Part shown: positions 362-62,286 of the stretch, piece by piece | How positions within the stretch are numbered: position 1 is the first letter of the stretch | Layout: each line of letters begins with the position of its first letter | Origin: a virus | Lineage: Duplodnaviria > Caudoviricetes | Length of the DNA stretch: 64,000 nucleotides | Reading direction: 5' to 3' (one strand) | IMG/VR virus record: IMGVR_UViG_3300037400_008007 | Coordinates: 1-64,000 of that record | The notes under the pieces: model-generated | Database searches by the model: none | What the model was told of the DNA's origin: nothing | What the model saw: only the letters and a program-made list of their open reading frames with translations | Translations under genes and position numbers: made by a program

Positions 362-1228
362 ATGAATGACGAGATGAAAATAAACGGAAAGGCATTATAC
401 ACCCCAAAGGGCGCGGCTCTCGAATATGCGCCTGTTGGTTGCAATATCTACACAGGCTGCAAGCATGATTGTGAGTATTGCTACTTAAAGCGTGGTGTTC
501 TGTCCCATGCAATGGGCGGTACTGATGTGAAACTTAAATCGTGCTTCAAGAGCGAAGAACATGCTATAGAGACATTTTGCAGGGAGGCAGACAGAAATCT
601 TGCTTATCTCCAGAAAGCAGGTGTGTTCTTCTCATTCTCCACAGACCCATTGATAGCCGAGACCCGTGCTGTCACAAAGGCTTGTCTTGTCTATGCTAAT
701 ATGCGAGCCATTCCTGTAAAGCTGCTGACAAAGAACGCAGACTTTATAGACGATGATTTGTTTATGTCGGGACTGGAGAGCGCAGACTTCCGCAGACTGG
801 TAGCTTTTGGCTTTACTCTGACAGGACGTGATGACATGGAGCCAGGCGCATCAACTAACGAAAAACGCATCGAGACGATGAAGAGATTGAAGGCTAAAGG
901 CTTTCACACCTTTGCAAGTATCGAGCCGATTATTGATTTCGGAAATTCGTTCGCAATGATAGAGCAGGCGGCTATGTTCTGTGACCTTTTCAAGATTGGA
1001 CTTCGCTCCGGAGTGAAAGACAACTATTATGATGCAAACAAGTGCGCTTTCTTTATAGGACAGATAACGTCCTTATGTGAAACGATTGGCTTCAAGGTAT
1101 ATTGGAAGCAGTCTATTTACAAGTATATTCAGAGGCACATGGCAAGTGACCATTTCGACATTGCTCTTTCTTTGAGCAAGAATTTTGTCGATATGGACTA
1201 TAACATATTCAAGGAGGGAAGAGTATGA
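362..1228 (+). CDS. Radical SAM protein (SplB-like)
   Basis: CxxxCxxC motif (GCKHDCEYCY), FSFSTDP, TFASIEP. The 338 start overlaps the upstream gene, so ATG 362 is preferred. Confidence 0.85.
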   Translation: MNDEMKINGKALYTPKGAALEYAPVGCNIYTGCKHDCEYCYLKRGVLSHAMGGTDVKLKSCFKSEEHAIETFCREADRNLAYLQKAGVFFSFSTDPLIAETRAVTKACLVYANMRAIPVKLLTKNADFIDDDLFMSGLESADFRRLVAFGFTLTGRDDMEPGASTNEKRIETMKRLKAKGFHTFASIEPIIDFGNSFAMIEQAAMFCDLFKIGLRSGVKDNYYDANKCAFFIGQITSLCETIGFKVYWKQSIYKYIQRHMASDHFDIALSLSKNFVDMDYNIFKEGRV

Positions 1229-2295
1229 TGTTAGACCTATATCCGTTGGAACTGTCAAAGGAGGCTGACAGACCAATAATCATTGCAGGCCCATGTTCTG
1301 CAGAGAGTGAAGAGCAACTGATGGAAACAGCGAAAAGGTTGTATGCGCAGGGAGTGAGATTGTTTCGTGCTGGAATATGGAAACCACGCACGAAGCCTGG
1401 CTGTTTTGAAGGCTACGGAGAGCAAGCCCTACCTTGGCTTGAAAACGTAGGAAAGCAGTTGAAGATGACAACCGCAACAGAGGTGGCCACTCCTGAACAC
1501 GTTGAGCTTGCATTGTTGTATAACATTGATGTGCTATGGATAGGAGCAAGAACGACCGCCAATCCTTTTGCCGTGCAATCGTTGGCAGACGCATTGAAAG
1601 GTGTCGATGTGCCAGTATTGGTCAAGAACCCTGTAAATCCAGATTTGGAGTTATGGATAGGAGCCTTGGAACGTCTCAACCGTGCAGATATTAGGAGGCT
1701 TGGGGTAATACACAGAGGCTTCAGCAGCTACGAAAACAAACTCTACCGAAACGCTCCAATGTGGCAGATACCTATTGAGCTTCGCAGGAGAATACCAGAG
1801 CTGCCAATATTGTGCGACCCCTCACACATGGGAGGAAAGCGAGACCTTATCGCTCCTTTGTCACAGCAAGCACTTGATTTGGGTTATGACGGCTTGTTTG
1901 TAGAGAGCCATAACGAGCCAGACAAGGCTTTAAGCGATGCAGGTCAGCAAGTGACTCCCGATGTCCTTGGTTACATCTTGTCTCTGCTTACGGTAAGAAG
2001 TACAAAGAGCGTAAATGTTGGACTAAGTGAACTCCGGCATCGTATTGACGAGATAGACGGACAACTTATTGAGCTGCTGTCAAAGCGAATGGGTGTCAGT
2101 AGGGAGGTAGCAGAGTACAAAAGAGAGTATAATATTCCAGTTTATCAGACAAAGCGTTACAGTGAGCTGATGGAGAAGAGAGAGGCGCAAGGGGCGTTAT
2201 GTGGACTTGCCAACACGTTTGTAACGAGCCTATTCAGCCTCATTCATGAAGAAAGCGTGAATGAACAAACAAAAATAATAAACCAAAAAAGGTAA
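1225..2295 (+). CDS. Bifunctional DAHP synthase (class I-beta) / chorismate mutase type II, an auxiliary metabolic gene
   Basis: IAGPCSAES, RAGIWKPRT, WIGART, VLVKNP, IHRGF, CDPSH and ESH motifs; C-terminal LRHRIDEIDGQLIELLSKR chorismate mutase domain. Confidence 0.93.
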   Translation: MMLDLYPLELSKEADRPIIIAGPCSAESEEQLMETAKRLYAQGVRLFRAGIWKPRTKPGCFEGYGEQALPWLENVGKQLKMTTATEVATPEHVELALLYNIDVLWIGARTTANPFAVQSLADALKGVDVPVLVKNPVNPDLELWIGALERLNRADIRRLGVIHRGFSSYENKLYRNAPMWQIPIELRRRIPELPILCDPSHMGGKRDLIAPLSQQALDLGYDGLFVESHNEPDKALSDAGQQVTPDVLGYILSLLTVRSTKSVNVGLSELRHRIDEIDGQLIELLSKRMGVSREVAEYKREYNIPVYQTKRYSELMEKREAQGALCGLANTFVTSLFSLIHEESVNEQTKIINQKR

Positions 2296-2301
2296 CAAAT
2301 T

Positions 2302-2571
2302 ATGGAAAGAAAAGAAATTAGTGAGAAAATTATTGCAATCATCGAAGAGAAGTTAGACTTCGAGAAGACTGCCAGTGATGAAAAGAAAGAGGGAGCGCTC
2401 TTCAGGGAGGACTTGAATGGTGACAGTCTGGATGCCGTGGAGGTTATCATGGAGATTGAGAGAGCCTTTGGTGTCACCATTACTGATGAAGAGGGCGATA
2501 GACTCTGTGGTGATAATGTAAAGGTGTCTGACTTTATAGACCTTGCATGTAAGAAAGTCAGCGAGAAGTAA
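2302..2571 (+). CDS. acpP: Acyl carrier protein
   Basis: DLNGDSLDAVEVIMEIERAFGVTI with the phosphopantetheine Ser in DSL; acidic, 89 aa. Confidence 0.88.
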   Translation: MERKEISEKIIAIIEEKLDFEKTASDEKKEGALFREDLNGDSLDAVEVIMEIERAFGVTITDEEGDRLCGDNVKVSDFIDLACKKVSEK

Positions 2572-2733
2572 ATGGAGAAAACCCTTATCTGTTGTGATGT
2601 AAAATGCACGGTTCGCATGGAATGTCAGCTATTCGGCCTGGCACTCGATGTCAATTCGGGAAAGAATATCGGCCAGTACAATATTCTGCCCGACGGAGAA
2701 TGTAAGGGGAACTATTACAAGAAAGCCAGATAG
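2572..2733 (+). CDS. Small Cys-containing hypothetical protein (53 aa, not in ORF track)
   Basis: Manual translation MEKTLICCDVKCTVRMEC...KAR*; abuts the ACP stop codon. Confidence 0.5.
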   Translation: MEKTLICCDVKCTVRMECQLFGLALDVNSGKNIGQYNILPDGECKGNYYKKAR

Positions 2734-3117
2734 CTATGAAAACGAAAAACCAAAACTTGTCAGCCAAAAGCGATCGAGTCAGTGACTATCAGCATGACCC
2801 GTTTGTCGTGGATTGGCCATGTGTAACCTCAAAACAGAACAAATCATGATGAAGATAGTTGCAACAACACTCCTTTGCATAATAGTATTGGTGCAGTGGG
2901 TAATAGGAATCAAAGGTTGTGCCAAGGAACATTTAGGATGCTCCAGTATGGTAATATTCAGCCTGTGGTCGATATTCCTTATCTCGTTGTTATACTTCGC
3001 AGGGTGTTTCGATTTTTGAAAGCAAAGGCTGGGGTGAGTGCCACGGTAACGTGTCACACGGAATTAAATGCATAGGCACCCCAGCCTGTTTTTATAAGGA
3101 TAATAAATAATACAAAT

Positions 3118-3522
3118 ATGGAGAAAAGAGAAGAACAGCTTATTGAACGTATTCTTGGCAAGGAGTTCCTAAACGCTGCAAAGGAATATGGAAAACAAAT
3201 CAAGGTGGCGGTAGCCATACAGGGAGCATCGCCCAATGTACAAACGGCTATGGAGCGCATCGCTTCAGTGGCTTTTGCCAAAGGAGCAGAAAATTTCCGA
3301 AGTAGCCTTTGGCACCCACTGGCGAAGAAATATCCGAAGCTCAACACTCCAGTCTTGTGCAAGGGTGAAAGTAACGTGCTGTTTATCGCAGAGTTCGTCA
3401 AGACAGCTGACGGAGGCATTAAGTCCAAGGACATGAACCACTGCCCTACAGAGAGAGTTGAGTACTGGATGGAGATACCAAACTCGGAAATTCGAGCAAC
3501 GAAAGAGGTGGCCATGAATTGA
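3118..3522 (+). CDS. Hypothetical phage protein with DUF551-like C-terminus
   Basis: WHP...P...VL...YWMEIP pattern. Confidence 0.55.
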   Translation: MEKREEQLIERILGKEFLNAAKEYGKQIKVAVAIQGASPNVQTAMERIASVAFAKGAENFRSSLWHPLAKKYPKLNTPVLCKGESNVLFIAEFVKTADGGIKSKDMNHCPTERVEYWMEIPNSEIRATKEVAMN

Positions 3523-3534
3523 GCCACCCCTTTC

Positions 3535-3657
3535 AAAGTAGAAGGCCCTACTCTCACGAGCAAGGCCGTTCCTATGCAAATAAGATAAATACCATCAAAA
3601 CTAAGACAATGATGCCAGAATAGGCAGTTGTCGTTAGATGAAAATGTATCTATCGAT
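3535..3657 (-). ncRNA. Candidate trans-acting antisense sRNA complementary to the cassette leaders
   Basis: Leftward promoter upstream; 3574-3611 is complementary to the cassette leader consensus; a 10-bp GUGA-tetraloop hairpin (3544-3567) pairs fully only on the minus strand. Confidence 0.55.
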
Positions 3658-3661
3658 GTGG

Positions 3662-3693
3662 CAAAGGTAGGATTTTTTTGTCAAAAGCACAAA
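3662..3693 (-). promoter_or_regulatory. Leftward Bacteroidetes housekeeping promoter
   Basis: Minus-strand TTTG (3693-3690), 20-nt spacer, TACCTTTG (3669-3662). Confidence 0.7.
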
Positions 3694-3705
3694 TTTTGTG
3701 CGATA

Positions 3706-3725
3706 TTTGATAAAATTTTATCAAA
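3706..3725. promoter_or_regulatory. Perfect 20-bp palindrome TTTGATAAAATTTTATCAAA, putative operator
   Basis: Self-complementary, lies between divergent promoters; the half-site TTTGATAAA recurs in the cassette promoters. Confidence 0.65.
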
Positions 3726-3728
3726 AAT

Positions 3729-3759
3729 TTTGCATTATCTGTAGAAATGATTATATTTG
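3729..3759 (+). promoter_or_regulatory. Rightward promoter of the HTH-ParB operon
   Basis: TTTG 3729-3732, 19-nt spacer, TATATTTG 3752-3759. Confidence 0.7.
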
Positions 3760-3779
3760 CACTTGAATTTCTAAACATT

Positions 3780-4190
3780 ATGATAAGAGAGAAGATTTAC
3801 CAGCAGATGTTGAAGCGCGGAGTGACCCAGACGGAACTCTGCAATGACCTCTGTCTGCAGGTGTCAAATTTCAATGCTTTTATTCGCGGAAAGAGGGCTA
3901 TGCCATTCAAAGACCTTGTGGCCACGATGAAGTATTTGAAGTTATCTGTGGCACCTCAAGGAACAGAAAGCACAAGCACCCCTCCCGAAAATATGAATGA
4001 GATTTTCCGCAAGCGAATTAAGCAGAATAACTTGAAACTTGTGGAAGTCGAGGCTGCTTCGGGTATCTGTAGAACAAGCATTTCCAGTATAATCACTGGA
4101 AAACACGTCACGTCATCGAAGAACCTTGGCAGGCTCATGACTGCTCTTGGTCTCGATGTCGTGCCGTTCAAGGCAACAGTAACGAACTAA
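3780..4190 (+). CDS. Transcription regulator with two tandem XRE-type HTH domains
   Basis: GVTQTELCNDLCLQVSNFNAFIRG and LKLVEVEAASGICRTSISSIITG. Start moved from 3747 to 3780 because the -7 box lies inside the longer ORF. Confidence 0.8.
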   Translation: MIREKIYQQMLKRGVTQTELCNDLCLQVSNFNAFIRGKRAMPFKDLVATMKYLKLSVAPQGTESTSTPPENMNEIFRKRIKQNNLKLVEVEAASGICRTSISSIITGKHVTSSKNLGRLMTALGLDVVPFKATVTN

Positions 4191-4204
4191 ATACAATCTG
4201 AACA

Positions 4205-4876
4205 ATGGAAATAGTAAGAAAGAGACTCGAAGAACTGGTCCCTGCCGACTACAATCCGAGGAAAGATTTGCAAGAAGCCGATAAGGAGTACCAAGACATC
4301 AAGAACGGTATTCAGAATTTCGGTCTTGTCGTTCCTCTGATTATGAACAAGCGGACTGGCAATCTTGTGAACGGTCACCAGAGACTAAAAGTACTGAAAG
4401 ACCTTGGCTATACAGAGGTTGAGGTGAGCATTGTAGATATGGACGAGACAAAGGAGAAGGCTCTTAATCTCGCCCTTAGTCGTATTGATGGTGATTTTGA
4501 CGGAAAGGCATTGACTAATGTTCTTGCAGAAGTGCGAGCAGCAGGCATCGACCCCGTTACGCTTGGTTTTACAAAGTCAGAGGTGGAGAAGATGTTTCCT
4601 GCAGATATGCAAGCCGAGAACCTTTTTGGCGACGAGACAGACAATCCTTTCAAGGACTACGATAATGAGCCAGAAGAGACGGAAGTTACGGCAATGGTCG
4701 GCAAGTATCGCTTCGTTATGGATAAGTCGAAGATGGAAGAAGTCATGGGTGAAATCCGCTACCGAAATGGCTTTGTCAAGGAGAGTGTGGAGAACGAAAT
4801 CAAGCTGAGACTATTCTATGGAAAAGACTGGAAACAACACGCAGCAGATAATGACAATACGGACGCTGAAGGTTAG
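4205..4876 (+). CDS. ParB/Srx N-terminal domain protein 1
   Basis: LVPADYNPRK...FGLVVPLIMN...LVNGHQRL. Confidence 0.85.
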   Translation: MEIVRKRLEELVPADYNPRKDLQEADKEYQDIKNGIQNFGLVVPLIMNKRTGNLVNGHQRLKVLKDLGYTEVEVSIVDMDETKEKALNLALSRIDGDFDGKALTNVLAEVRAAGIDPVTLGFTKSEVEKMFPADMQAENLFGDETDNPFKDYDNEPEETEVTAMVGKYRFVMDKSKMEEVMGEIRYRNGFVKESVENEIKLRLFYGKDWKQHAADNDNTDAEG

Positions 4877-5489
4877 TGAAATCGAAGAAGCCTTTTACAA
4901 TCCCCGAAAGGTGATGAAGAAAGGTAGTAAGAAATACGAGAACCTAAAAGGAAGCCTGGAGCAGTTCGGTATAGTTGAGCCGCTTGTGGTGAACGAGGTG
5001 AACAACCGCCTTATCTCCGGCCATCAAAGACTGAACGTGTTGCGTGACCTTGGCACCGAAGAGGTAGAGGTGTCTATCGTTCATATCGAGGACGAAGCAA
5101 GGGAAAAGGCTTTGAACGTGTTGCTCAACAAGGTAAAAGGCAAGTGGGATAAGCTCAAGCTGGCAGATGTACTCAAATCGATTGGCGATGAGTTCAACGC
5201 TCTTGACCTTGGCTTTGAAGAGAGTGATATTGCCGAGTTCCTAAAGAACGGAGAGGACGTTGGTGTTGATGGTGCTCATGCGGACGAAATGGACGAAGGC
5301 ATCAAACTGCGTAAGGACGCTGCCGCTGTGGTCGTTGCTATTGCTGGGGTGCGCTTTACTATTCCGGCACCAGAGTTTGCACAGTTGGAGCAGAATCTTG
5401 TCGAGGCAGGATGCTTCAGCGATAAAGAAATCAGTGAAGAACTTAAAAAAAGATTTATAGCCGATGATACAGATGGTAGCGTTGGATAA
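4818..5489 (+). CDS. ParB/Srx N-terminal domain protein 2 (start may be 4851)
   Basis: FYNPRK...FGIVEPLVVN...LISGHQRL. Confidence 0.85.
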   Translation: MEKTGNNTQQIMTIRTLKVSEIEEAFYNPRKVMKKGSKKYENLKGSLEQFGIVEPLVVNEVNNRLISGHQRLNVLRDLGTEEVEVSIVHIEDEAREKALNVLLNKVKGKWDKLKLADVLKSIGDEFNALDLGFEESDIAEFLKNGEDVGVDGAHADEMDEGIKLRKDAAAVVVAIAGVRFTIPAPEFAQLEQNLVEAGCFSDKEISEELKKRFIADDTDGSVG

Positions 5490-6999
5490 AATCCACGCAT
5501 CTACTTACAACCCCAGAAAGTCAGACCCCAAACGTCTTGACCTGTTAGAGCTTTCGTTGCGGAAGCTCGGCTTTGTGTCACCAATCGTTGTTGACCAAGG
5601 CGGTGAAATTATTTCGGGCCACCAGAGAAGTTTCGTTGCAACACGCATGGGAGTGAAGATGGTGCCAGTAACCATTATCCCTCGCATGACGCTTGATGAG
5701 CGCAAGAGTCTTAACATCGTGTTCAACCGTGCCACCAATGACTTGAAGCGTAGTGACACTTGTGCTACGGTCAATGAGTATGTGAGCCGTTTCGATGTTG
5801 AAGCTATTGCAAATAAGCTTCCAGACCTTACCCCCGATACTCCAGAGTTCTATCCTTGTATGCACACCAAGACTGGTGACAGCTTCGACTTATTGAAGAA
5901 GAATGCAGACAAGATAAACCACTATGCGACCAATATGTATAGCACCTTGGCCCGAAAGAAGATAGAGTTGCCTACTGTTGTCGATGAAGAGGACAATGTT
6001 GTAAACGGTATCGGTCGAGTTTCTTACTATGCAAAGCAGAATGTTCGTCCAATTCCGATCTGTCGTATTACGAAAGCCCAGGCACAGTTTGCAAACCTCA
6101 TGCTGAACTACCTTACAATGGACTTTGACATTCAGAACCGATACGCAGACACGTTGCGTCACAACTCATTCATGCGCACAAGAAACACACGAAACGGTGG
6201 TTTGGGCTGTGGTTTCTACAAGGGTTTGTGGCCTTACTTGCGTTGCGAGGACACGATGATACTTGAGGACAAGAAGAAAGAAGAATGGGTAGCACGTTTC
6301 GGGGAGAGCATTGTGGACTTTGGTGCTGGCAAGCTCAATAACACCCGAATACTCCGAGAGTCCGGCATCCCATGCTCTGCTTTTGAACCGTATTTCATCG
6401 CCACTGGTGAGGAAATCAGCAAGCAAGAGTCGCTAAAGATTGACCGCAAATTCCTTGAAGAGATTGCCGATGGCCGAGAGTTCAGTACCATATTCATTTC
6501 TTCGGTGTTCAACTCTGTGCCATTTATGGAGGACAGAAAGGCCATAGCCACTATTTGCTCTGCCCTGTCGAGCCCAGAGACGATTTGCGTATGTTGGACG
6601 CAGGGAGTGAACGTAGGCAACAATGCTGCCATATCGTCTAACGTACAGAGCAAGAGAGCTGCAGGACAGATTACGTTCAACATTGACTATGAGCCAAACG
6701 TGGTGCTGGGTGACTTCTCTAAGCTACCAAAAGTTCAGAAGTACCACACCAACCGAGAAATCTTTGACATCTTCGACCCAGTGTATAGCAAGATTTACCG
6801 TCTTGACAAGCTGGACGGATATGTGTATATGGAGGCCAAGGGCTCACGTCTTGACGTGAACAATGTCGAGTACATGGAGCGTCTGCGTAAGGCCATAGAG
6901 TTCGAGTTTGACCTGCCTTATCCAGACGGTACAAGAGCAGGACTTGTCGAAGAGGCAAAAGAGGCTTTTGGCAGGCGATTAGGAGTGAAAATTCCATAA
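5464..6999 (+). CDS. ParB-domain protein fused to a C-terminal class I SAM-dependent transferase-like domain
   Basis: TYNPRK...GFVSPIVVD...IISGHQR; second degenerate ParB unit (VVNGIGR); IVDFGAG motif I; FISSVFNSVPFMEDR. Confidence 0.7.
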   Translation: MIQMVALDKIHASTYNPRKSDPKRLDLLELSLRKLGFVSPIVVDQGGEIISGHQRSFVATRMGVKMVPVTIIPRMTLDERKSLNIVFNRATNDLKRSDTCATVNEYVSRFDVEAIANKLPDLTPDTPEFYPCMHTKTGDSFDLLKKNADKINHYATNMYSTLARKKIELPTVVDEEDNVVNGIGRVSYYAKQNVRPIPICRITKAQAQFANLMLNYLTMDFDIQNRYADTLRHNSFMRTRNTRNGGLGCGFYKGLWPYLRCEDTMILEDKKKEEWVARFGESIVDFGAGKLNNTRILRESGIPCSAFEPYFIATGEEISKQESLKIDRKFLEEIADGREFSTIFISSVFNSVPFMEDRKAIATICSALSSPETICVCWTQGVNVGNNAAISSNVQSKRAAGQITFNIDYEPNVVLGDFSKLPKVQKYHTNREIFDIFDPVYSKIYRLDKLDGYVYMEAKGSRLDVNNVEYMERLRKAIEFEFDLPYPDGTRAGLVEEAKEAFGRRLGVKIP

Positions 7000-7010
7000 A
7001 GAAACCTATC

Positions 7011-7074
7011 TAAAAACTTGCATATTTGATAAATTATTTGTACCTTTGAGTACCAAAAATAAGGAAAAGACGCA
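7011..7074 (+). promoter_or_regulatory. Cassette promoter C1 (degenerate leader)
   Basis: CTTG-CATATTTGATAAA...TACCTTTG (7041-7048). Confidence 0.7.
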
Positions 7075-7569
7075 ATGAAAGATAGAATAATTCTTTTGGA
7101 TTTGAACTACACCTTGGTTAGCAACCAAGAAAAGACTCGTATGATACGGCCTTTCGAGGCCCGTCTGCGAGCCGAGGACTACAGGAAAGACCTTATAGAG
7201 GCCATCAAAGGAAATCGTGTCATCATCATTACTGCCCGTCCGTCCTACCAAGGGGCGCAATCACTGGCAAACATTCAGCGTAAGACAGGGTGGCAACCAA
7301 TGGAGGCGCATTTCAATGACCTTAATCTCGATCCGCCCTCAATCAAAGAGAGCATCCTCGAACGATTTGTTTTCCCAAAGTATGGGAATGAAGGCAAGAC
7401 GTTCTTTGCTGTGGAGAGCAATCCAAGAACGAGGGCTATGTATTACCGTCATGGCATCCCTGCAGAACCTTATGAGAAGTTCATACAGCGTTTCCCAGAG
7501 ATTGTGATGGCGATGACCAACGACCCAGCACAGTTAGAATTATTCCCAAATGACGACACAAAAGAGTAA
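7075..7569 (+). CDS. HAD-superfamily, PNKP-phosphatase-like protein with degenerate motifs
   Basis: ILLDLNYTL (motif I-like), IIITARP (motif II), FAVESN (motif IV-like). Confidence 0.6.
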   Translation: MKDRIILLDLNYTLVSNQEKTRMIRPFEARLRAEDYRKDLIEAIKGNRVIIITARPSYQGAQSLANIQRKTGWQPMEAHFNDLNLDPPSIKESILERFVFPKYGNEGKTFFAVESNPRTRAMYYRHGIPAEPYEKFIQRFPEIVMAMTNDPAQLELFPNDDTKE

Positions 7570-8302
7570 GAAAGAAGCAGCAGACAAAAAGCAAGACAAA
7601 TATATCCCAACCAAGCAGTGGGAGTTCAACAAGGAGGTGACAGATGTTTTCCCAAACATGCTGTCACGCTCCATTCCTGGCTATGAGAGTATGCGTGAAC
7701 TGGTGTACCGCATGGCTCGTAACTTTGTCAAGGAAGGAACAAACGTACTTGATATTGGCTGTTCTACTGGCATATCATCAGAATTGCTCATACAGAATTT
7801 TGGCCCTAAGTGCAACTTTGTGCTTACTGATGTGAGTGAGCCAATGATTGCCAAGTGCCGAGAGAAGTATGCCAAGGAGATACAAGAAGGCTATGTCAAT
7901 GTGAAGTACAGCGACCTGCGAGAGAAACTGCCTGTAAAGGGCTGTTCCCTTATCCTGTCTTGTCTAACCATCCAGTTCACTCCTATAGAGTACCGTCAGT
8001 TTATCTTCAAGAACATATATGAGTCCTTGGAGCCTGGCGGTGCTTTGGTGTTGGTGGAGAAAGTGATGGGAAACTCTGATGACATCGACCAAGTGTTGGT
8101 GAAGGAGTACTATGACATCAAGAGAGAGAACAGGTACACAGAGGAACAGATAAAGACCAAGCGCAGAAGTCTCGAAGGCTCACTTGTGCCGCTCACCATA
8201 AAGATGAACGAGCAACTGTTGAACATCAGTGGCTTCCATAAGGTAGATACGTTCTGGCGATACCTAAATTTCGTGGCACTCATAGCCATAAAGGAGAAAT
8301 AA
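7550..8302 (+). CDS. cmoA: Carboxy-S-adenosyl-L-methionine synthase homologue
   Basis: Colinear with E. coli CmoA as recalled: WEFNKEVTDVFPNMLSRSIPGY, LDIGCSTG, TIQF, PGGALVLVEK, KRENRYTEEQIKTKRRSLE (R205 matches catalytic R199). Confidence 0.85.
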   Translation: MTTQKSKKEAADKKQDKYIPTKQWEFNKEVTDVFPNMLSRSIPGYESMRELVYRMARNFVKEGTNVLDIGCSTGISSELLIQNFGPKCNFVLTDVSEPMIAKCREKYAKEIQEGYVNVKYSDLREKLPVKGCSLILSCLTIQFTPIEYRQFIFKNIYESLEPGGALVLVEKVMGNSDDIDQVLVKEYYDIKRENRYTEEQIKTKRRSLEGSLVPLTIKMNEQLLNISGFHKVDTFWRYLNFVALIAIKEK

Positions 8303-8320
8303 TCAAGAAAGGAGAAGAGC

Positions 8321-8881
8321 ATGGCAGCACCAAAAGGAAACCAATACTACCTCTTGGCCAAGCAAGCCCTTGGGCGACCTAAAGCCATAGAGACTGCAAA
8401 GGAGTTTGAAGAGAAGTTCCTTGAATACGTCGAATGGAGCGAGGACAACCCAATACTGTCTAAACGTGCGTCCAAACGTACAGGGGCAACAGATGCCAGT
8501 GGCCAACAAAAACCCGATGAAATCCGAATGGATAGCGAGAGTAAACGCAGACCACTATCCATGTACGGACTCTGTGCCTATCTTGGTGTAAGCCGGAAGT
8601 GGTTTGAAATGAGGCTCAAGACGCTTGAAGAAAAAGGTAAGGAGCGAACCGAAGAAGAGGAAGAGTTTTTTACCTCCATTACACGCGCAAAGAGCATTAT
8701 CGAAATGCAGCAGTATGATGGAGCGAGTGTAGGGGACTTCAATGCCACACTCACCATGAGGGCATTGGGATTGGGCGACAAGGTGGATATGACCAGCGAC
8801 GGGGAAGCCATCAAGACTACCCTGCCAATCATTAACATAATGAGAGACGAGCGCTGTGCAGGTGGACGTGAAGCTGAATGA
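8321..8881 (+). CDS. terS: Terminase small subunit
   Basis: MAAPKGNQY N-terminus typical of gp3-type packaging proteins; directly upstream of TerL. Confidence 0.8.
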   Translation: MAAPKGNQYYLLAKQALGRPKAIETAKEFEEKFLEYVEWSEDNPILSKRASKRTGATDASGQQKPDEIRMDSESKRRPLSMYGLCAYLGVSRKWFEMRLKTLEEKGKERTEEEEEFFTSITRAKSIIEMQQYDGASVGDFNATLTMRALGLGDKVDMTSDGEAIKTTLPIINIMRDERCAGGREAE

Positions 8882-10217
8882 CAAGCAATTCCATGCATAC
8901 GACATTCTCACCGACATGGATAACGGTGTTACCGAACTTCTGTACGGAGGTGGAGCGCGTGGAGGAAAAACATGGCTCGGATGCTTTTGGCAGATAACCA
9001 ACCGCCTAAAATATCCGCAGTCCGTGGGAATGATATGCCGTGAGCAACTTGTCAATCTGTTAGACACTACCCTCAAGACGTTCTTTGAAGTGCTGGACTT
9101 CCTCGGAATAACCGACCAAGTGGTTTACAAGGGAGGTATGACCAACTCTGCTTTCTTTCCCAACGGCTCGATGATATTCTTCCGCTCACTGGCGAAGAAG
9201 CCTAAAGACCCGAACTTTGACCGTTTCGGCTCATATGCCATAACGGACTTGTTTGTTGATGAGAGTCAGCAGGTGTCAGAAAAGGCTATCAACGTGATAC
9301 GAGGTCGTTTCTCTCTGCTTGAAGGCCCGAACCCAGACGGAACGAAGTGGCACCTCATACCCAAGGCCATGTATAGCTGTAACCCCTCAAGGGGATGGAA
9401 CTACACCTTGTTTGTGAAGCCTGCCAAGGACGGGAATCTTGCACCATTCAGAAGATTTGTCAAGGCACTACCAAAGGACAATCCCTATGTCACGCAGGAC
9501 TATATCGACAATCTGTTGCGATCAGACAAAATCACAGTGGAACGTCTGTATTATGGAAATTTCGAGTATGACGATGACCCTGCCTCGCTGATAGACTACG
9601 ATGCGCTGGTAGATATGTTCCACAATGAGCATGTGCAGCCAGTAGGTGGCAGAAGTTGTTCTGCTGACATAGCAGGCAAAGGCCGTGACCGTTTTGTTGC
9701 AGGCTCATGGATTGGGAACGTCTGTACGATAGCCCTCGATAAACAATACTCTCCAGCTAAAGAGGTGCAAGAGGACTTGAAGCAGTTGATGATAAGAGAC
9801 CGTGTGCCAAGGACATTGACCGTGGTCGATGCGGACGGTATAGGCTCATTCTTGGAAAGCTATCTTGAAGGTATAAAAGAGTTTCATGGAGGCTGGAAGC
9901 CACTCGATGCACGTTATCAGAACCTACGAGCCGAGTGTTACTTCAAACTGGCAGAGCTTATCAATGGCCGTAAGATAAGAGTTATCTGCACAGACGAGCA
10001 GCGAGACCGAATTATTGACGAGCTTGGAGCGTTAAAGCAGGCGCATATCGACAATGACGTAGGAAAGAAAGACGTTATCAAGAAAGACGAATGGAAGACC
10101 CTGCTGGGCGGTAAGTCACCTGACTACTCTGATATGCTGATGATGGCCATGATATTCAGAAGAAGCAAAACAACGGCAGGGCCACAGGTGTCAGTGCAGA
10201 GACGAAGTACTGAATAA
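8856..10217 (+). CDS. terL: Terminase large subunit
   Basis: Walker A GGARGGKT, Walker B LFVDESQQ, SCNP, nuclease-domain SADIAG and SPDYSD. Confidence 0.93.
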   Translation: MQVDVKLNDKQFHAYDILTDMDNGVTELLYGGGARGGKTWLGCFWQITNRLKYPQSVGMICREQLVNLLDTTLKTFFEVLDFLGITDQVVYKGGMTNSAFFPNGSMIFFRSLAKKPKDPNFDRFGSYAITDLFVDESQQVSEKAINVIRGRFSLLEGPNPDGTKWHLIPKAMYSCNPSRGWNYTLFVKPAKDGNLAPFRRFVKALPKDNPYVTQDYIDNLLRSDKITVERLYYGNFEYDDDPASLIDYDALVDMFHNEHVQPVGGRSCSADIAGKGRDRFVAGSWIGNVCTIALDKQYSPAKEVQEDLKQLMIRDRVPRTLTVVDADGIGSFLESYLEGIKEFHGGWKPLDARYQNLRAECYFKLAELINGRKIRVICTDEQRDRIIDELGALKQAHIDNDVGKKDVIKKDEWKTLLGGKSPDYSDMLMMAMIFRRSKTTAGPQVSVQRRSTE

Positions 10218-10281
10218 CAGTGTTCAGTAACGAAGATGCAAATAAGATAAAAACGACAAAATTAAGCAGTAACTTTACGCA

Positions 10282-11901
10282 ATGAAAAAGAAGAGTCGCA
10301 CGAAAAATGGAGCGGAAGATTGTCTCTATAGAGACTTTCTGATGCTCTACCAGTTCTGCACAGAGGAAGTCAAAATGGACTTACTGAAACGCTTGAAAGG
10401 CCAGCCGAGACCCGAGACCCTTTGCGGTAAGATAGTTCCGAAAGACCTAAACAGCATCAGCTATGGATCACTTGATGACTTACGGAGTGCTGGCGAAGAA
10501 AAAGACCCAGTGGGGGCTTGTGCCAAGATACTGCTCGGACTGGAGCCAGAAAAATTGCTGCGAGAAGATGTGAACGATGTCTTTGGCTTTGGCGGCTTCA
10601 TCACAAAGGAGCTGGAGCGTATAAACAGGCTCTTCAAGGACATAAAGGTGAACTACTCTAAGGAAGAAATAGCAGCAGGTATACGGCAGCTTGACTTTGG
10701 TAGTTTTGGTGTCCTTGATTGGTACGCAAAACGTATGGGAATCACCAACCAAAACGAAGTGCGAGACGTGGCTTGGGTGCGTATCTACCAGTGCATGAAG
10801 AACGATTGTATGAAGAACGAGTACGAGCGCAGGCTGAGTCAGCAATACAAATCGAAGATAGGCAAAAACAAAAGATAGGCAATGAGTAAGTGTAATTGTT
10901 TGAAGAACGTGGCCGCTCATGGCACAGTGGAGAAGAAAATCCATTCGATTGTAGACAGCATGGAAGCAGATGTTGCCTACTTCTTCTTGAACTGGGCGCA
11001 GGCCAACGAAGCTATTGACAACGTGGATAAGCCCTCTATTGTTTATGTACTCCCGCCGTCGGGAGAACTTGATGTTAGTTGGGCGCAGGTAAAGGACAGG
11101 CCAGAAGCGCAAATAGCGTTTATAGCTCCCACAGACTTCGACTTCGATGGAGAAGCCAATGATGACATCATAGAGCAGATGAAGCGTTTGTGCGTAAGGT
11201 TCATAAAAGCCTTCAACGAGAGCGGCTTGTTTGAGATTATCGAAGGCAAATTGTCATATAGGGTGCTATATGATTATCTTGACCACAATGTGACAGGTAT
11301 AGTTATTACTCCAAAAATCAAGGAGGAAGAGGGAATTATCATTTGTGGCGATGAAGAGGTGAGAGCCGAGGATGAGTAACCATAGTGGCCAATGGAAGCG
11401 ATAAGAGAAATAGTAATGCGGCACTTGCAGAACGTGCAGAAAGGCATCGTTGTAAACATGCAGAAGATGCACCGCACAACGTCTGGCCGTTCTGTCGCAT
11501 CGTTGCTTATTGAGGATGAAGGCACAGACGGCATGGCTCATTTGCTCCTTACTGGTGATAAGCAGTGGGAAGTCATGGAGAGAGGGCGAGGGCCAGGCAA
11601 TGTGCCACATAACTTCGCAGACATTATCAAGGAGTGGATATTGCGCAAGGGTATCAGTTATCAGCAGTTCGCTCCGAAGAAAGGGCCAACAGAACGAGGA
11701 TTGACAAATCTCTCATGGATGATAGCGCAAAGCATCATGAAGAAAGGCACAAAGCTCCACCGCGACAATGGATATAACGACATCTTTGACACCCTGCTAA
11801 AAGAAGAGACAGAGAAGCTGGCTATCGAAGCGCAGGGTATAATAGCAACAGAAGTAGATACAATAAACGACAAAGACGATGCAGAGAAGAGCAATTCGTA
11901 G
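10282..11901 (+). other. Three ORFs (10282-10878, 10882-11379, 11392-11901), probable neck or tail-completion proteins
   Basis: Position between TerL and tail genes; 165-198 aa; no diagnostic motif recognised. Confidence 0.5.
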
Positions 11902-21552: not shown

Positions 21553-21786
21553 ATGACACGTTACGAACTTTTGACAACAAACAAGACGCTCATTGAGGCG
21601 ATGGTGGAGAACTCCATTGACATTCGGGACATCAAGTATCTCTCGCTATATGCAGAGTTTAAGGCGATGAAATCCAAGAAGCACAAGGTAGGCTACATTG
21701 TCCTGCACCTTAGCGAGAAATACAAGATGTCCGAGAGAGGCATCTACAAGCTGATAGACCGAATGAAGAAACGAGTCGCAATATGA
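21553..21786 (+). CDS. Small HTH-like protein
   Basis: LSEKYKMSERGIYKLI helix-turn-helix-like C-terminus. Confidence 0.55.
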   Translation: MTRYELLTTNKTLIEAMVENSIDIRDIKYLSLYAEFKAMKSKKHKVGYIVLHLSEKYKMSERGIYKLIDRMKKRVAI

Positions 21787-22535
21787 AGCACTACAACACC
21801 ATAGAGGAAAGTCATCTGTACTTCGGGAACAATCTCGAAGTTATGGATGACCTGCCTGCGTACAGCATAGACCTTATTGTGACCGACCCACCTTACAACT
21901 TCACGAAGGCGAATTGTACCAAGATGTATAAAGAGACTTCTAAGAAGCTGATGTCGAAGTCTGGTCTATACGACTACGACGACGAGACGGAAGAATGTCG
22001 TATTAAGGCAGGCTTCAGTAAGGATGACATCTACCGATGGTTGGATATGACACCAAGGCTGGTAAAGAAGATGAACGCATACATTTTTTGTTCCGAGGTG
22101 CAAGTGCCTATCTATGCCATGTGGGCAGAGGAACACGGTTATAAGTTCTCAATTCTCATTTGGGAGAAGCCGTTGGCCATTATCAGCAAAAGCCGTTATT
22201 CGCAGAATGTGGAGTTTATTGTGCGCATATACGATGACGGAACCGCCCTCAATAAGATCGATGACTGCGAACAGTACAACAGAGTCCTGCATATTCCAGT
22301 AGTCACCAAGAAGCTAACACCTACGCAGAAACCTGTTGCGCTCATGGCCAGGCTTATCCGTCTATCCTCGCAAGAAGGGGGTGTTGTTCTTGATCCGTTC
22401 TTAGGTTCGGGAACAACGGCTGTTGCAGCCCAACGGTTGGGCAGGAAGTATATCGGCATAGAAAGAAATGAGCGATTCTATCGCATTGCAGAGAATCGCT
22501 TAAAGGAAGAGTGCGTCCAACAGTCGCTGTTTTAG
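21783..22535 (+). CDS. DNA methyltransferase, N4-C/N6-A, beta class
   Basis: IVTDPPY precedes TQKPVAL and VLDPFLGSGTT. Confidence 0.9.
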   Translation: MKHYNTIEESHLYFGNNLEVMDDLPAYSIDLIVTDPPYNFTKANCTKMYKETSKKLMSKSGLYDYDDETEECRIKAGFSKDDIYRWLDMTPRLVKKMNAYIFCSEVQVPIYAMWAEEHGYKFSILIWEKPLAIISKSRYSQNVEFIVRIYDDGTALNKIDDCEQYNRVLHIPVVTKKLTPTQKPVALMARLIRLSSQEGGVVLDPFLGSGTTAVAAQRLGRKYIGIERNERFYRIAENRLKEECVQQSLF

Positions 22536-52626: not shown

Positions 52627-53943
52627 TTGCGGAATGAAGGAATATTCACTATGAGTAAAAGATATGGTCATATCATGCCACAAATCATCGAGAGACGGAA
52701 CATGGATGATGCCTTCGATGAGGTGGTAGGAGGCTTAGAGGGAAAGGAGCGTCGGGAGCACTACGAGGCGCAGAGAGAGAGTATCATATCACGGCTGACC
52801 GCCAAGATAGGCTCCGGCACCTTTCGCATCACACGCTATGAACAGTTCTGGGTTCAAGACGGGCCTAAGCGTAGGTTGATACAGTCGCCCAGCGTGACAG
52901 ACAGAATTGGTTGTAATGCCGTGATGAGGGTTGTGGAGAAATATATCTACCCGACCATTATCAAGACATCTGCAGCAAGCATCAAAGGACGTGGCATGCA
53001 CAGGCTCTACCGTAAGATGAGGACAGACGTGCGCCATGACCGAGAGGGAACGAGATACTTCTATATGTGCGACATAAGAAAGTTCTACGAGAGTGTGAAC
53101 CAAGACATGACGTTTGCGCTGGTTAAGGAATATATCAAAGACCCCTTGGTGCTGCCGATACTGGAGAGCTTTATTAGGCTCATGCCGAAAGGACTTTCCA
53201 TAGGCCTGCGTTCATCGCAGTGCTTCGGTAATATGCTGCTGTCAAGAATGGGTCACAGGTTAAAGGAGAAAGAGGGTGTGCGCTACCTTTACATCTACTG
53301 TGACGACATTCGAGTGTATGGTGCAACAAAGAAGTGGCTATGGCATATCCGAGACATCATTCACGAAGAGGTTGAAAGCCTTGGACTGGAGATAAAGCCC
53401 AGCGAGGCTGTTAAGCCAACGACAGAGGGGAATGACTTTCTTGGATATATCGACTATGGCGATCATTCGAGATTAAGAAAGAGAACAAAACAAAAAGCCG
53501 CACGGAAACTTGCCCGAATAAAGAGCCGCAAGCGCAGACAGAAAATAGTCGGTTCTTTCAAGGGCATGGCGAAATGGGGAGATTGTAAACATTTATACAG
53601 AACGCTAACAGGTAAAGACATGGAAGAGTTCAAAGATTTTGGACTACAGTATGTAGCCGACGATGGTAAGAAACGGTTTGCTGGTGATGTAATCAAGTTG
53701 CATCAGCTTACCAATATGCACATTATCATTACGGACTACGAAGAGAACGTAGACACGGCTAACGGCAAACGTACTCTGGTGTCGTTCAAGTACGACAACG
53801 GAACGCCTGCCAAGTATTTCACTTCTGACAAGCAGCAGCTCTATTTCCTGCAGCAGCTATCTTCGATGAAAAAGATACCGTTTGGTACGACTATCAAGAG
53901 TGAGAGCTACGGGAACGGAAAGGTACGTTATATATTCACTTAA
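52627..53943 (+). CDS. DGR reverse transcriptase with a C-terminal extension of about 107 aa
   Basis: KRRLI, IKGRG, CDIRKFYES, GLSIGLRSSQCFGN, YCDD, DFLGY; adjacent to TR. Confidence 0.95.
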   Translation: MRNEGIFTMSKRYGHIMPQIIERRNMDDAFDEVVGGLEGKERREHYEAQRESIISRLTAKIGSGTFRITRYEQFWVQDGPKRRLIQSPSVTDRIGCNAVMRVVEKYIYPTIIKTSAASIKGRGMHRLYRKMRTDVRHDREGTRYFYMCDIRKFYESVNQDMTFALVKEYIKDPLVLPILESFIRLMPKGLSIGLRSSQCFGNMLLSRMGHRLKEKEGVRYLYIYCDDIRVYGATKKWLWHIRDIIHEEVESLGLEIKPSEAVKPTTEGNDFLGYIDYGDHSRLRKRTKQKAARKLARIKSRKRRQKIVGSFKGMAKWGDCKHLYRTLTGKDMEEFKDFGLQYVADDGKKRFAGDVIKLHQLTNMHIIITDYEENVDTANGKRTLVSFKYDNGTPAKYFTSDKQQLYFLQQLSSMKKIPFGTTIKSESYGNGKVRYIFT

Positions 53944-59809: not shown

Positions 59810-61093
59810 ATGAACCCAAAACATAGTTTATTTACATCAGAAGCAGTTTCAGAAGGCCACCCCGACAAGGTGGCTGACCAAATATCAGACGCTATCCTTG
59901 ATGCTTACTTTGCCAAAGACCCAAGCTCAAAGGTAGCGTGTGAGACTTTAGTGACCACTGGCCAAGCGATTGTAGCAGGAGAAATCCATTCGAGAGCCAA
60001 GGTCGATGTTCAGTCAGTAGTCCGAGAGACAATCAAACGCATTGGCTACGACCGCCCAGAGTTGAAGTTCGACGGAGAGAGCTGTGGGGTCATCAATCTG
60101 CTGCATGAACAGAGCGCAGATATTCGCAGAGGTGTTGAGCGTATCGAGCCGATGAACCAAGGTGCGGGTGACCAAGGGATGATGTTCGGTTATGCTACAG
60201 GTGAGACCGAGACCTACATGCCGTTGCCAATCTATCTTGCAAATCTTATCGTTAAAGAGCTTGCCATTGTGAGAAAGAAGCGTGAAGCCATGCTCTATCT
60301 ACGACCAGACAGCAAGAGTCAGGTGACTGTAGAATATGATGAGGATGGAAACGCTGTGCATATCGACACGATAGTTGTCAGTACCCAGCATGACGAGTTC
60401 GTTACACCCGACACTTGCAATCTTCCAGACGAAGCAGACGAAAGGATGCACGACATCATTGCTTATGACATCGAGAACTATCTGCTGCCAAGGGTCAAGG
60501 AGCGTATCAGTAGCGACGAGATACTTGCTTTGTTTGATGAGAACACCAAGATACTTGTCAATCCTACAGGAAAATTCGTGATTGGTGGCCCTCATGGTGA
60601 TACAGGATTGACAGGCCGAAAGATAATCGTTGATACCTACGGAGGTAAGGGCGCACATGGAGGCGGTGCTTTTAGCGGAAAGGACTGTTCAAAGGTTGAC
60701 CGTTCGGCAGCATACATGGCTCGTTACATTGCAAAGAATATGGTTGCTGCAGGAGTGGCAAAGGAAATGCTTGTTCAGTTAAGCTACGCTATTGGAATAG
60801 CCGAGCCTGTAAGCGTAAACGTACAGACTTTTGGCACCGCTCAAGTCGATCAGACTGATGCAGAGATTGCGGTGGCCATAAAGAACTTGTTCGACCTACG
60901 TCCGAAAGCCATAGAGTGCCAGTTGTCATTACGACAGCCAATGTATCAAGAGACGGCAGCTTATGGCCATGTGGGAAGAGAGCAGACCTGCGTAACGAAA
61001 GTTATTGAGGGTGTTTCATATAACGTGGCTCTCTTTACATGGGAAGCTCTCGATGCTGTAGAACGCATATCTGCCTACTTCGCTGACAAATGA
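59810..61093 (+). CDS. metK: S-adenosylmethionine synthetase
   Basis: [39 protein letters not shown]. Confidence 0.96.
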
Positions 61094-61806: not shown

Positions 61807-62286
61807 ATGGAGAAAATTCAAAGTTTCAAGACCGACCACACAAAGATGCTGCCTGGCATCTATGTTGCGAGAAAGTATGTCACTCCAAACGGTGACACTA
61901 TTACGACCATTGATATTCGGATGAAAAAGCCGAATTACTCTATGATAAACCCAGAAGCCGCACACACGTTAGAACATCTTGGCGCAACATTTCTGCGGAA
62001 TGAGGAATCGCTTGGAGAGCGTGTAGTTTATTTCGGGCCAATGGGTTGTTTGACAGGCTTTAGCCTAATACTTAGTGGAGATTGGGAAAGCCATCAACTT
62101 GTTCATACGCTTCAAAGACTGATGACTTATGTCATAGGTTACGAGGGAGAAGTGCTTGGCGCAACTAAAAAGGAGTGCGGCAATTACTCCTACCACAGCT
62201 TATCTTTGGCGAAAGTCGATGCGAGAGAGTATCTGGAGCTGCTGAACAATATTACGGAAGCAAATCTTAGCTATCCGAAAGACTGA
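61807..62286 (+). CDS. luxS: S-ribosylhomocysteine lyase (AI-2 synthase)
   Basis: SFKTDHTKM, HTLEH, GPMGCLTGF, CGNY. Confidence 0.95.
   Translation: MEKIQSFKTDHTKMLPGIYVARKYVTPNGDTITTIDIRMKKPNYSMINPEAAHTLEHLGATFLRNEESLGERVVYFGPMGCLTGFSLILSGDWESHQLVHTLQRLMTYVIGYEGEVLGATKKECGNYSYHSLSLAKVDAREYLELLNNITEANLSYPKD

Follow-up and report, generated by a model that had tools for sequence, protein, structure and literature searches.

A ParB-fused class I transferase paired with a CmoA-like gene as the candidate carboxy-SAM-dependent DNA-modifying enzyme of a phage module

Analysis of a 64,000-nucleotide stretch of Caudoviricetes DNA (hereafter the window; it is the first 64 kb of the 74.6-kb IMG/VR provirus record IMGVR_UViG_3300037400_008007, in which all genes lie on the plus strand) points to the 511-amino acid (aa) protein encoded at 5464-6999, a fusion of two ParB-like units with a divergent class I transferase domain (hereafter the fusion), as the probable transferase of a phage DNA-modification module that uses carboxy-S-adenosylmethionine (carboxy-SAM). 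In the proposed scheme, the CmoA-like protein encoded at 7550-8302 would convert S-adenosylmethionine (SAM) and prephenate to carboxy-SAM, and the C-terminal class I domain of the fusion would move the carboxymethyl group of this cofactor onto phage DNA. The ParB-type domains, together with one or two standalone ParB paralogues, would recruit the enzyme to DNA at a late stage of infection, and additional enzymes encoded in the window (a 3-deoxy-D-arabino-heptulosonate 7-phosphate (DAHP) synthase-chorismate mutase, MetK and LuxS) would probably raise the supply of prephenate and SAM and clear by-products. The first description of carboxy-SAM DNA modification, from December 2025, involved only one type of enzyme, CmoX; the fusion represents a second candidate. 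No published description of the fusion-CmoA module was found in the literature searched; the transferase family is new, and the kind of system, carboxy-SAM DNA modification, is already known. The genes and domains of the module are as follows.

4205-4876, plus strand: standalone ParB-N protein 1, 223 aa (ParB_N 28.4 bits; phrog_620, E 6.6e-37)
4818-5489, plus strand: standalone ParB-N protein 2, 223 aa, abutting the fusion gene (ParB_N 33.7 bits; phrog_498/620, E ~1e-37)
5464-5748, plus strand: ParB-N domain 1 of the fusion, residues 1-95 (family profile against the Noc/ParB domains in PDB that bind cytidine triphosphate (CTP), E 1.6e-5; Noc/ParB also by Foldseek)
5836-6138, plus strand: degenerate second ParB-like domain of the fusion, residues ~125-225, with NGIGR at 181-185 (hhalign against domain 1)
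6139-6852, plus strand: divergent class I SAM-type transferase domain of the fusion, residues ~226-463 (VIA-align, Foldseek, motif I)
6853-6999, plus strand: conserved C-terminal helical tail of the fusion with an EFEFxLPYPDG motif, and stop codon (F480, E481, F482, L484, P485 and Y486 invariant, n = 54; predicted local distance difference test (pLDDT) score ~90)
7075-7569, plus strand: small HAD-fold protein, 164 aa, phrog_32036 (model pLDDT 92; Foldseek)
7550-8302, plus strand: CmoA-like carboxy-SAM synthase, 250 aa (TIGR00740, E 1.1e-49; phrog_4752, E 2.7e-71; structure 4GEK)

The assignment is carried by the linkage of the fusion gene to CmoA-like genes across phages and prophages. At 80 IMG/VR loci with fusion homologues of 43-90% identity, a CmoA-like gene lies within ~1.5 kb of the fusion gene in 78 cases, the other two loci stopping at a contig edge. 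A set of 80 loci from bacterial genomes has an adjoining CmoA at 69, is truncated at eight and is without CmoA at three (i.e., 69 of 72 evaluable loci carry the pair), and the hosts belong to Bacteroidota, Bacillota, Verrucomicrobiota, Pseudomonadota, Chloroflexota, Planctomycetota and Bdellovibrionota. The same pairing occurs at 32-38% identity in cultured phages (Gordonia phage Evaa, Aeromonas phage HJ05 and Pseudomonas Samunavirus phages), and at least five gene orders of the module are observed. Among GenBank phage records, a CmoA-like gene is present in 82 and the fusion in only 14, and the dependence between the two runs one way. Overall, the fusion family comprises at least 800 protein clusters, ~260 IMG/VR contigs and 105 of ~185,000 species genomes, its habitats including phages of gut, rumen, freshwater and soil. 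The partner gene of the window encodes a protein that aligns over its full length with the E. coli CmoA structure 4GEK (E 5.7e-37) and for which TIGR00740 is by far the best family, predicting carboxy-SAM synthase activity; for CmoA-like proteins only 24-28% identical to that of the window, CmoA is still the best family.

Known users of carboxy-SAM are largely missing from the same genomes. PF00145, the family of CmoX, has no match in 45 of 47 module-bearing records, nine of them at least 90% complete and three of them cultured genomes, and none in the 511-aa protein or the rest of the 74.6-kb record. Two module-bearing records do contain C5 methyltransferases (G035 and G042), but these keep PCQ, are without the Arg hallmark and were rejected as CmoX. 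CmoB was found in none of five module-carrying phage genomes and none of five host genomes, and the CmoB profiles (PF08003 / TIGR00452) gave no match to the 511-aa protein at E <= 0.1 (Pfam) or <= 0.01 (NCBIfam).

Further support comes from the phylogeny of the CmoA partners and from an apparent exchange of cassettes between actinophages. In a 60-row CmoA tree, the fusion-linked CmoAs do not form one clade (approximately unbiased test, log-likelihood difference 131.9, p 7e-5), and the fusion appears to have associated repeatedly with different CmoA lineages. Streptomyces phage TurkishDelight carries at its right genome end (locus L250, NC_073473.1 88500-93606) the order ParB, ParB, CmoX-type enzyme (GSPPC, IGRAVPP), amidotransferase/Asn-synthase-like protein and CmoA, and this cassette is identified here as a cultured actinophage example of the published CmoX system. 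The cassette of Gordonia phage Evaa consists of ParB, the ParB fusion, the HAD-like gene and CmoA. The ParBs of the two phages share 38% identity (E 4e-20) and their CmoAs group as sister branches (support 99), so that, between homologous ParB and CmoA flanks, the fusion occupies the place of CmoX. The initial annotation of the window had named the 511-aa protein as the best candidate for a carboxy-SAM-using transferase; this choice is now strongly supported by comparative genomics (the linkage to CmoA, the lack of CmoX and CmoB, and the actinophage swap).

The N-terminal part of the fusion belongs with its two upstream neighbors. The three ParB-N genes are co-oriented and overlapping (4205-4876, 4818-5489 and 5464-6999, encoding 223, 223 and 511 aa), and their description as three consecutive ParB/Srx-domain genes holds: both 223-aa proteins score above the gathering cut-off of Pfam ParB_N (PF02195, 26.3 bits), the 511-aa protein lying marginally below it at 26.1. 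Each of the three proteins has both YNPRK and GHQR, as had been noted, so that box I ((x)PR) and box II (GxxR) are present throughout and align to QPR and GERR of Noc/ParB. In domain 1 of the fusion, NPR falls on QPR and GHQR on GERR, and the N88 position of CTP-binding ParBs is also kept. The earlier count of four ParB domains in total, which hinged on a second degenerate unit in the 511-aa protein, is upheld by profile-profile alignment of residues 1-100 with 125-225 (hhalign probability 90%, E 1.6e-6), in which GHQR falls on NGIGR. Indeed, both units show an equal order of strands and helices in the AlphaFold model, with NGIGR at a helix start, and the second unit retains only N147 and G..R185 of the box motifs.

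Standalone ParB 1 matches the N-terminal ~160 residues of the phrog_498 ParB-fused DNA methyltransferases (E 1.1e-36), and the match of the ParB paralogues to this N-terminal module (E ~1e-37) is counted in favor of DNA targeting by the system. A ParB open reading frame lies directly upstream of the fusion gene in nearly all related loci, with one such frame in some lineages and two in others. In a 730-aa protein (P0057), a homologue of ParB 2 is fused to the N-terminus of the enzyme (37% identity, E 2e-30). This protein had been a candidate for a fusion with CmoA, which was ruled out, its additional part being the ParB paralogue. The conserved abutting position and this single natural fusion are the only signs of a physical link between ParB paralogue and fusion; that the paralogues might load the enzyme onto DNA or slide it there ahead of packaging is a suggestion of the initial annotation.

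The 511-aa protein is a full-length match to phrog_5475 (E 1.6e-105), a PHROGs family annotated as of function unknown, and its AlphaFold model, built from 30 homologues, reaches a pLDDT of 87 and a predicted template-modelling score of 0.83. The only family-level match of the transferase domain in Pfam is Methyltransf_23 over residues 280-385, at 24 bits against a cut-off of 27. By structure, the domain matches small-molecule and tRNA class I methyltransferases, among them METTL6, Trm9, glycine N-methyltransferase and CcbJ (VIA-align Z up to 13, with a root-mean-square deviation of 3.2 A over 179 residues; Foldseek E ~1e-5), and no DNA methyltransferase is listed among these matches. Since only generic class I methyltransferases were matched, the fold does not reveal the substrate. 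At the sequence level the domain has no PDB match even at E <= 10, and Pfam returned no PF01555, PF02086 or PF02384-type match in the 511-aa protein. The motifs VVNGIGR, DFGAG and SSVFNSVPFMEDR reported by the initial annotation are all found in the protein, and its reading of the (D/N)PP(Y/F) motif as replaced was correct: SSVFNSVPF stands after strand 4, a pattern that fits Methyltransf_11/23-type enzymes. No DPPY or PCQ motif is present in the domain, nor any PC after strand 4.

An alignment of 54 diverse members (32-90% identity) shows motif I (D285-F-G-A-G289) and the ribose-binding E308 to be invariant, along with N350-S351-x-P353-F354, D357-R358, E410, K423, Q425 and K426; overall, about 30 residues of the transferase half are invariant besides motif I and the ribose-binding Glu. 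The invariant basic residues of this half are R232, R238, R358, K423 and K426. They are possible carboxylate-binding residues, so that a lack of any such residue, which the initial annotation named as grounds for rejection, is not evident. The only near-invariant Cys of the family is C132 (53 of 54 members; nt 5857-5859), which belongs to a conserved "PC" dipeptide between the ParB units and lies outside the Rossmann domain. A Cys-dependent C5-pyrimidine mechanism via C377, which follows strand 5 as in 5-methyluridine (m5U) methyltransferases, was considered and rejected, as about half of the family members have Ala at this position. Given the lack of an invariant Cys in the catalytic domain, a direct bimolecular nucleophilic substitution (SN2), with attack by a ring or exocyclic N or by O, is more probable than chemistry at C5 of a pyrimidine, and 5-carboxymethylcytosine is an unlikely product. 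A split variant, seen in two independent assemblies (L087/L088), has one gene for the double-ParB part (248 aa) and another for the transferase domain (266 aa). The search found no longer fused forms of the transferase domain; shorter forms are mostly contig-end fragments, with one genuine split form (L087).

The gene between the fusion and cmoA encodes a capless HAD Rossmannoid fold, with the T4 Pnkp 3'-phosphatase domain, MDP-1 and HisB-N as best Foldseek matches (E 5e-5 to 3e-4, TM-score ~0.53-0.62). HAD phosphatases have the motif I DxDx(T/V), in which the Asp at +2 is the general acid/base. In the HAD-like protein, motif I is D9-L-N11-x-T13 (DLNxT), with Asn at +2, so that it does not conform to DxDx(T/V), and motif IV is E-S-N-P. 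Among 21 diverse members, D9, N11, T13, T53, K91 and E114-S-N-P are invariant. When 80 loci are anchored on the HAD-like gene, the fusion is present in 74 and CmoA in 77, and the numbers of IMG/VR relatives are similar (266 for the HAD-like family vs. 259 for the fusion); by these associations, the HAD-like family is taken to be dedicated to the carboxy-SAM module. No HAD-like gene was found at the tblastn level in the Pseudomonas and Aeromonas module phages. Judged by position, the gene corresponds to CmoY.

Several loci depart from the usual composition of the module. Three prophage copies (L117, L125 and L128) have the fusion and the HAD-like gene with no nearby CmoA; in the case of L128, the host genome encodes a bona fide CmoA (241 bits), an indication that some phages draw on carboxy-SAM made by the host. 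Two IMG/VR loci (L184 and L215) carry the HAD-like gene and, ~500 bp on, part of a CmoA-like gene; neither ParB nor fusion genes occur within 5 kb, and the arrangement looks like a deletion remnant of the module.

Comparison with characterized systems places the module within a small set of carboxy-SAM pathways. In the published phage system, the carboxy-SAM produced by CmoA is used by CmoX, which is homologous to C5-methyltransferases, has an SPPC motif and Arg350 (motif X; contacting the carboxymethyl group) and writes 5-carboxymethylcytosine (5cxmC); CmoY amidates this base, the products in Synechococcus phage S-B43 are 5cxmC and its glycine amide, and ParBc proteins often neighbor CmoX (Yang et al., Nat Commun 2025, PMC12783734). 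As in the CmoA-CmoX-CmoY set of S-B43, a phage CmoA homologue here adjoins a SAM-fold transferase with ParB-domain proteins nearby, and by analogy the two systems likely share a purpose, namely DNA hypermodification against host restriction. Unlike CmoX, the fusion has no PF00145 match, no SPPC or PCQ, no invariant catalytic-domain Cys and no homologous motif X with its arginine, and its module has a small HAD-fold protein in the position of the asparagine-synthetase-like ligase, which it lacks. Beyond the Rossmann fold, the two enzymes are not homologous.

In the E. coli pathway to tRNA uridine 5-oxyacetic acid (cmo5U), CmoA likewise makes the cofactor for a class I transferase, CmoB, which binds the carboxylate of carboxy-SAM via K91, Y200 and R315 (PMC4482062). 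Invariant basic or polar residues of the fusion lie at places of similar topology (in the lid that precedes strand 1, behind strand 4 and in the C-terminal part), but the K91/Y200/R315 triad is not mappable onto it, and the fusion, unlike CmoB, bears ParB domains and is phage-borne in hosts without CmoB. The fusion resembles the phrog_498 enzymes (ParBc with an N6_N4 methylase) in starting with a ParB-N module that has NPR and GHxR boxes and in being encoded near terminase genes; those enzymes have a canonical DPPY domain and use SAM, whereas the fusion has two ParB units, a Methyltransf_23-like domain and the tie to CmoA. TglF, acting on a peptide thiol, and the methyltransferase domain of MccB (microcin C of Bacillus) are also paired with a CmoA homologue (TglE and MccS, respectively) in a dedicated cluster (PMC10491745). 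They differ from the fusion in that their substrates are a peptide and a nucleotide antibiotic, and TglF is a CmoB homologue.

Additional genes of the window may be connected to the module through its cofactor, and they are given here along with the promoter copy inside the module, the terminase genes and the other DNA methyltransferase of the record.

1225-2295, plus strand: DAHP synthase-chorismate mutase fusion (Pfam DAHP_synth_1, E 9e-40; CM_2, E 1.1e-22)
7017-7049, plus strand: copy of a Bacteroidetes-type promoter, CTTG-N20-TACCTTTG, preceding the genes for the HAD-like protein, CmoA and the terminase
8321-10217, plus strand: terminase small and large subunits, directly downstream of the module (GP3_package, E 4e-16; Terminase_3, E 3.9e-6; phrog_606 and phrog_2)
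21783-22535: canonical beta-class N6/N4 DNA methyltransferase (PF01555, E 1.8e-34; DPPY and FLGSGTT intact)
59810-61093, plus strand: MetK, SAM synthetase (three of three S-AdoMet synthetase domains, E 7e-63 to 3e-39)
61807-62286, plus strand: LuxS, S-ribosylhomocysteinase (Pfam LuxS, E 1.4e-49)

By their predicted activities, the DAHP synthase-chorismate mutase is a likely source of prephenate for CmoA and MetK a likely source of SAM, with LuxS as a probable means to salvage the breakdown products of S-adenosylhomocysteine. The concentration of carboxy-SAM in E. coli cells is only ~0.5 uM (PMC4482062), and genes for prephenate and SAM supply would fit a high, stoichiometric demand for the cofactor. 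MetK and LuxS are encoded late in the genome (59810-62286). Among the loci compared, homologues of the DAHP synthase-chorismate mutase occur only in L001-L008, L090 and L091. In the window, this gene belongs to a tight operon at 338-2571, together with genes for a radical SAM protein (PA0069/SPL-like, a weak match) and an acyl carrier protein (ACP)-like protein (PP-binding, E 3.6e-7); the operon is confined to the phage clade of the window (L001-L003, L090 and L091).

A number of observations weigh against the fusion as a carboxy-SAM DNA transferase. The CmoA-like protein of the window scores 169.2 bits, below the TIGR00740 equivalog cut-off of 193.3, and the scores go down to 53 in distant modules. 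Motifs of the DNA methyltransferase classes are all missing from the transferase domain, and its nearest structures are small-molecule and tRNA methyltransferases. The fusion has no detectable relation to CmoB, and its invariant basic residues are at most candidates for contact with the carboxylate. The fusion stands without a nearby CmoA at three bacterial loci, and inherited synteny could be behind much of the linkage. A simple model, in which CmoA makes the cofactor and the fusion uses it, leaves the dedicated HAD-like protein without a place. More generally, the analysis shows the anatomy of the domains, the family membership, the conserved linkage and the absence of other carboxy-SAM users, and from these we infer the cofactor, DNA as the substrate, the atom that is modified and what the ParB paralogues and the HAD-like protein do.

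Quite a few of these observations would agree with transfer from carboxy-SAM to a substrate other than DNA, i.e., a free nucleotide, RNA or a protein (a ParB paralogue or a packaging protein), which we regard as unlikely but worth keeping in view. Apart from the structural neighbors and missing motifs just mentioned, the dedicated HAD-fold protein is closest to the T4 Pnkp 3'-phosphatase domain (i.e., to nucleotide/polynucleotide phosphatases), the NPR, GxxR and N88 positions of CTP-binding ParBs are kept in a ParB/Srx fold that binds nucleoside triphosphates, and a nucleotide conjugate is the substrate of one known carboxy-SAM enzyme, Bacillus MccB (review PMC10491745). Such a substrate is harder to reconcile with ParB paralogues that share homology with the DNA-targeting part of ParB-fused DNA methyltransferases, with a module that takes the position held in a related phage by CmoX, an enzyme proven to act on DNA, and with supply genes that suggest a stoichiometric rather than a catalytic demand; nor do nucleotide kinase or polymerase genes accompany the module. 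It is less likely still that the fusion is an ordinary SAM methyltransferase, with the CmoA-like protein draining host SAM, countering SAM-dependent defenses or feeding a host pathway. Depletion of SAM by phage CmoA was raised as a possibility by Yang et al. (PMC12783734), the K91A variant of CmoB indicates that carboxy-SAM enzymes are able to methylate too (PMC4482062), and both the sole family-level match (Methyltransf_23) and the CmoA scores below the equivalog cut-off could be read in this way. Nevertheless, depletion would leave unexplained the near-obligate linkage to one transferase family across phyla and gene orders, the repeated re-association with different CmoA lineages and the presence of the fusion instead of CmoX between otherwise homologous genes, and a host pathway would lack its consumer, as the sampled hosts are without CmoB.

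Two further explanations appear highly improbable. One would make the N6/N4 amino-methyltransferase at 21783-22535, the only other DNA methyltransferase of the record, the carboxy-SAM user of the window and give the ParB fusion another role. This enzyme has a strong PF01555 match with DPPY and FxGxG intact, but its motifs are canonical, its family is limited to the clade of the window (three of 13 near-complete module-bearing genomes), its gene is 13 kb from cmoA, and Yang et al. found neither another candidate carboxymethyltransferase nor an amino-methyltransferase associated with phage CmoA (PMC12783734). The other, of equally slight probability, takes the three ParB genes as a system for partition or recognition of packaging sites, with the methyltransferase-like domain as a non-catalytic cofactor sensor, in line with ParB-N domains bearing NPR and GxxR boxes, the adjacency to terminase genes and the provirus nature of the record. 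A partition system would be one with no ParA partner and no parS-like repeat found in 2300-9000, a mere sensor would not account for motif I, the ribose-binding Glu and ~30 further transferase residues staying invariant from 32 to 90% identity, and sensing does not need a dedicated CmoA.

Returning to the fusion as a carboxy-SAM DNA transferase, a more specific proposal can be put forward only tentatively, at somewhat less than an even chance: the family would be a second, independently evolved class of DNA carboxymethyltransferases, present in prophages of at least seven phyla and producing an undescribed N- or O-carboxymethyl base (e.g., N6-carboxymethyladenine), with the HAD-fold protein processing the mark in the CmoY slot. 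If true, this would add to the enzymes of carboxy-SAM a class of a new kind, and probably to DNA a base not known before, and DNA labeling would gain a new carboxyl handle, possibly of other sequence or atom specificity. The question is directly testable, since cultured phages carry the module (Gordonia Evaa, Aeromonas HJ05 and the Pseudomonas PaMx31/SM1-type).

The genomic setting of the module agrees with a Bacteroidales phage. Its upstream neighbors are the radical SAM gene, the DAHP synthase-chorismate mutase fusion, the ACP-like gene and a double-helix-turn-helix gene, and downstream are the 164-aa protein (phrog_32036), the CmoA-like gene and the terminase genes. The nearest relatives (88-90% identity) are prophages of metagenome-assembled genomes of rumen Bacteroidales, and a megablast search of GenBank phages with the region gave no match. 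The pattern TTTG-N18-22-TAnnTTTG has 11 matches against 1.27 expected (sites 3729-3759, 7017-7049 and nine others), which is consistent with a Bacteroidales host; the spacer ATATTTGATAAA is common to several of these matches, and in the copy at 7017-7049 both the spacer and the -7 box are identical to the repeated promoter of the phage. With these promoter copies, the module is predicted to be transcribed as two units. A search of 2300-10400 revealed neither parS-like repeats nor a convincing terminator, and the repeats seen there stem from paralogous coding sequence. Elsewhere in the window, a reverse transcriptase gene is present at 52627-53943 (RVT_1, E 5.4e-10).

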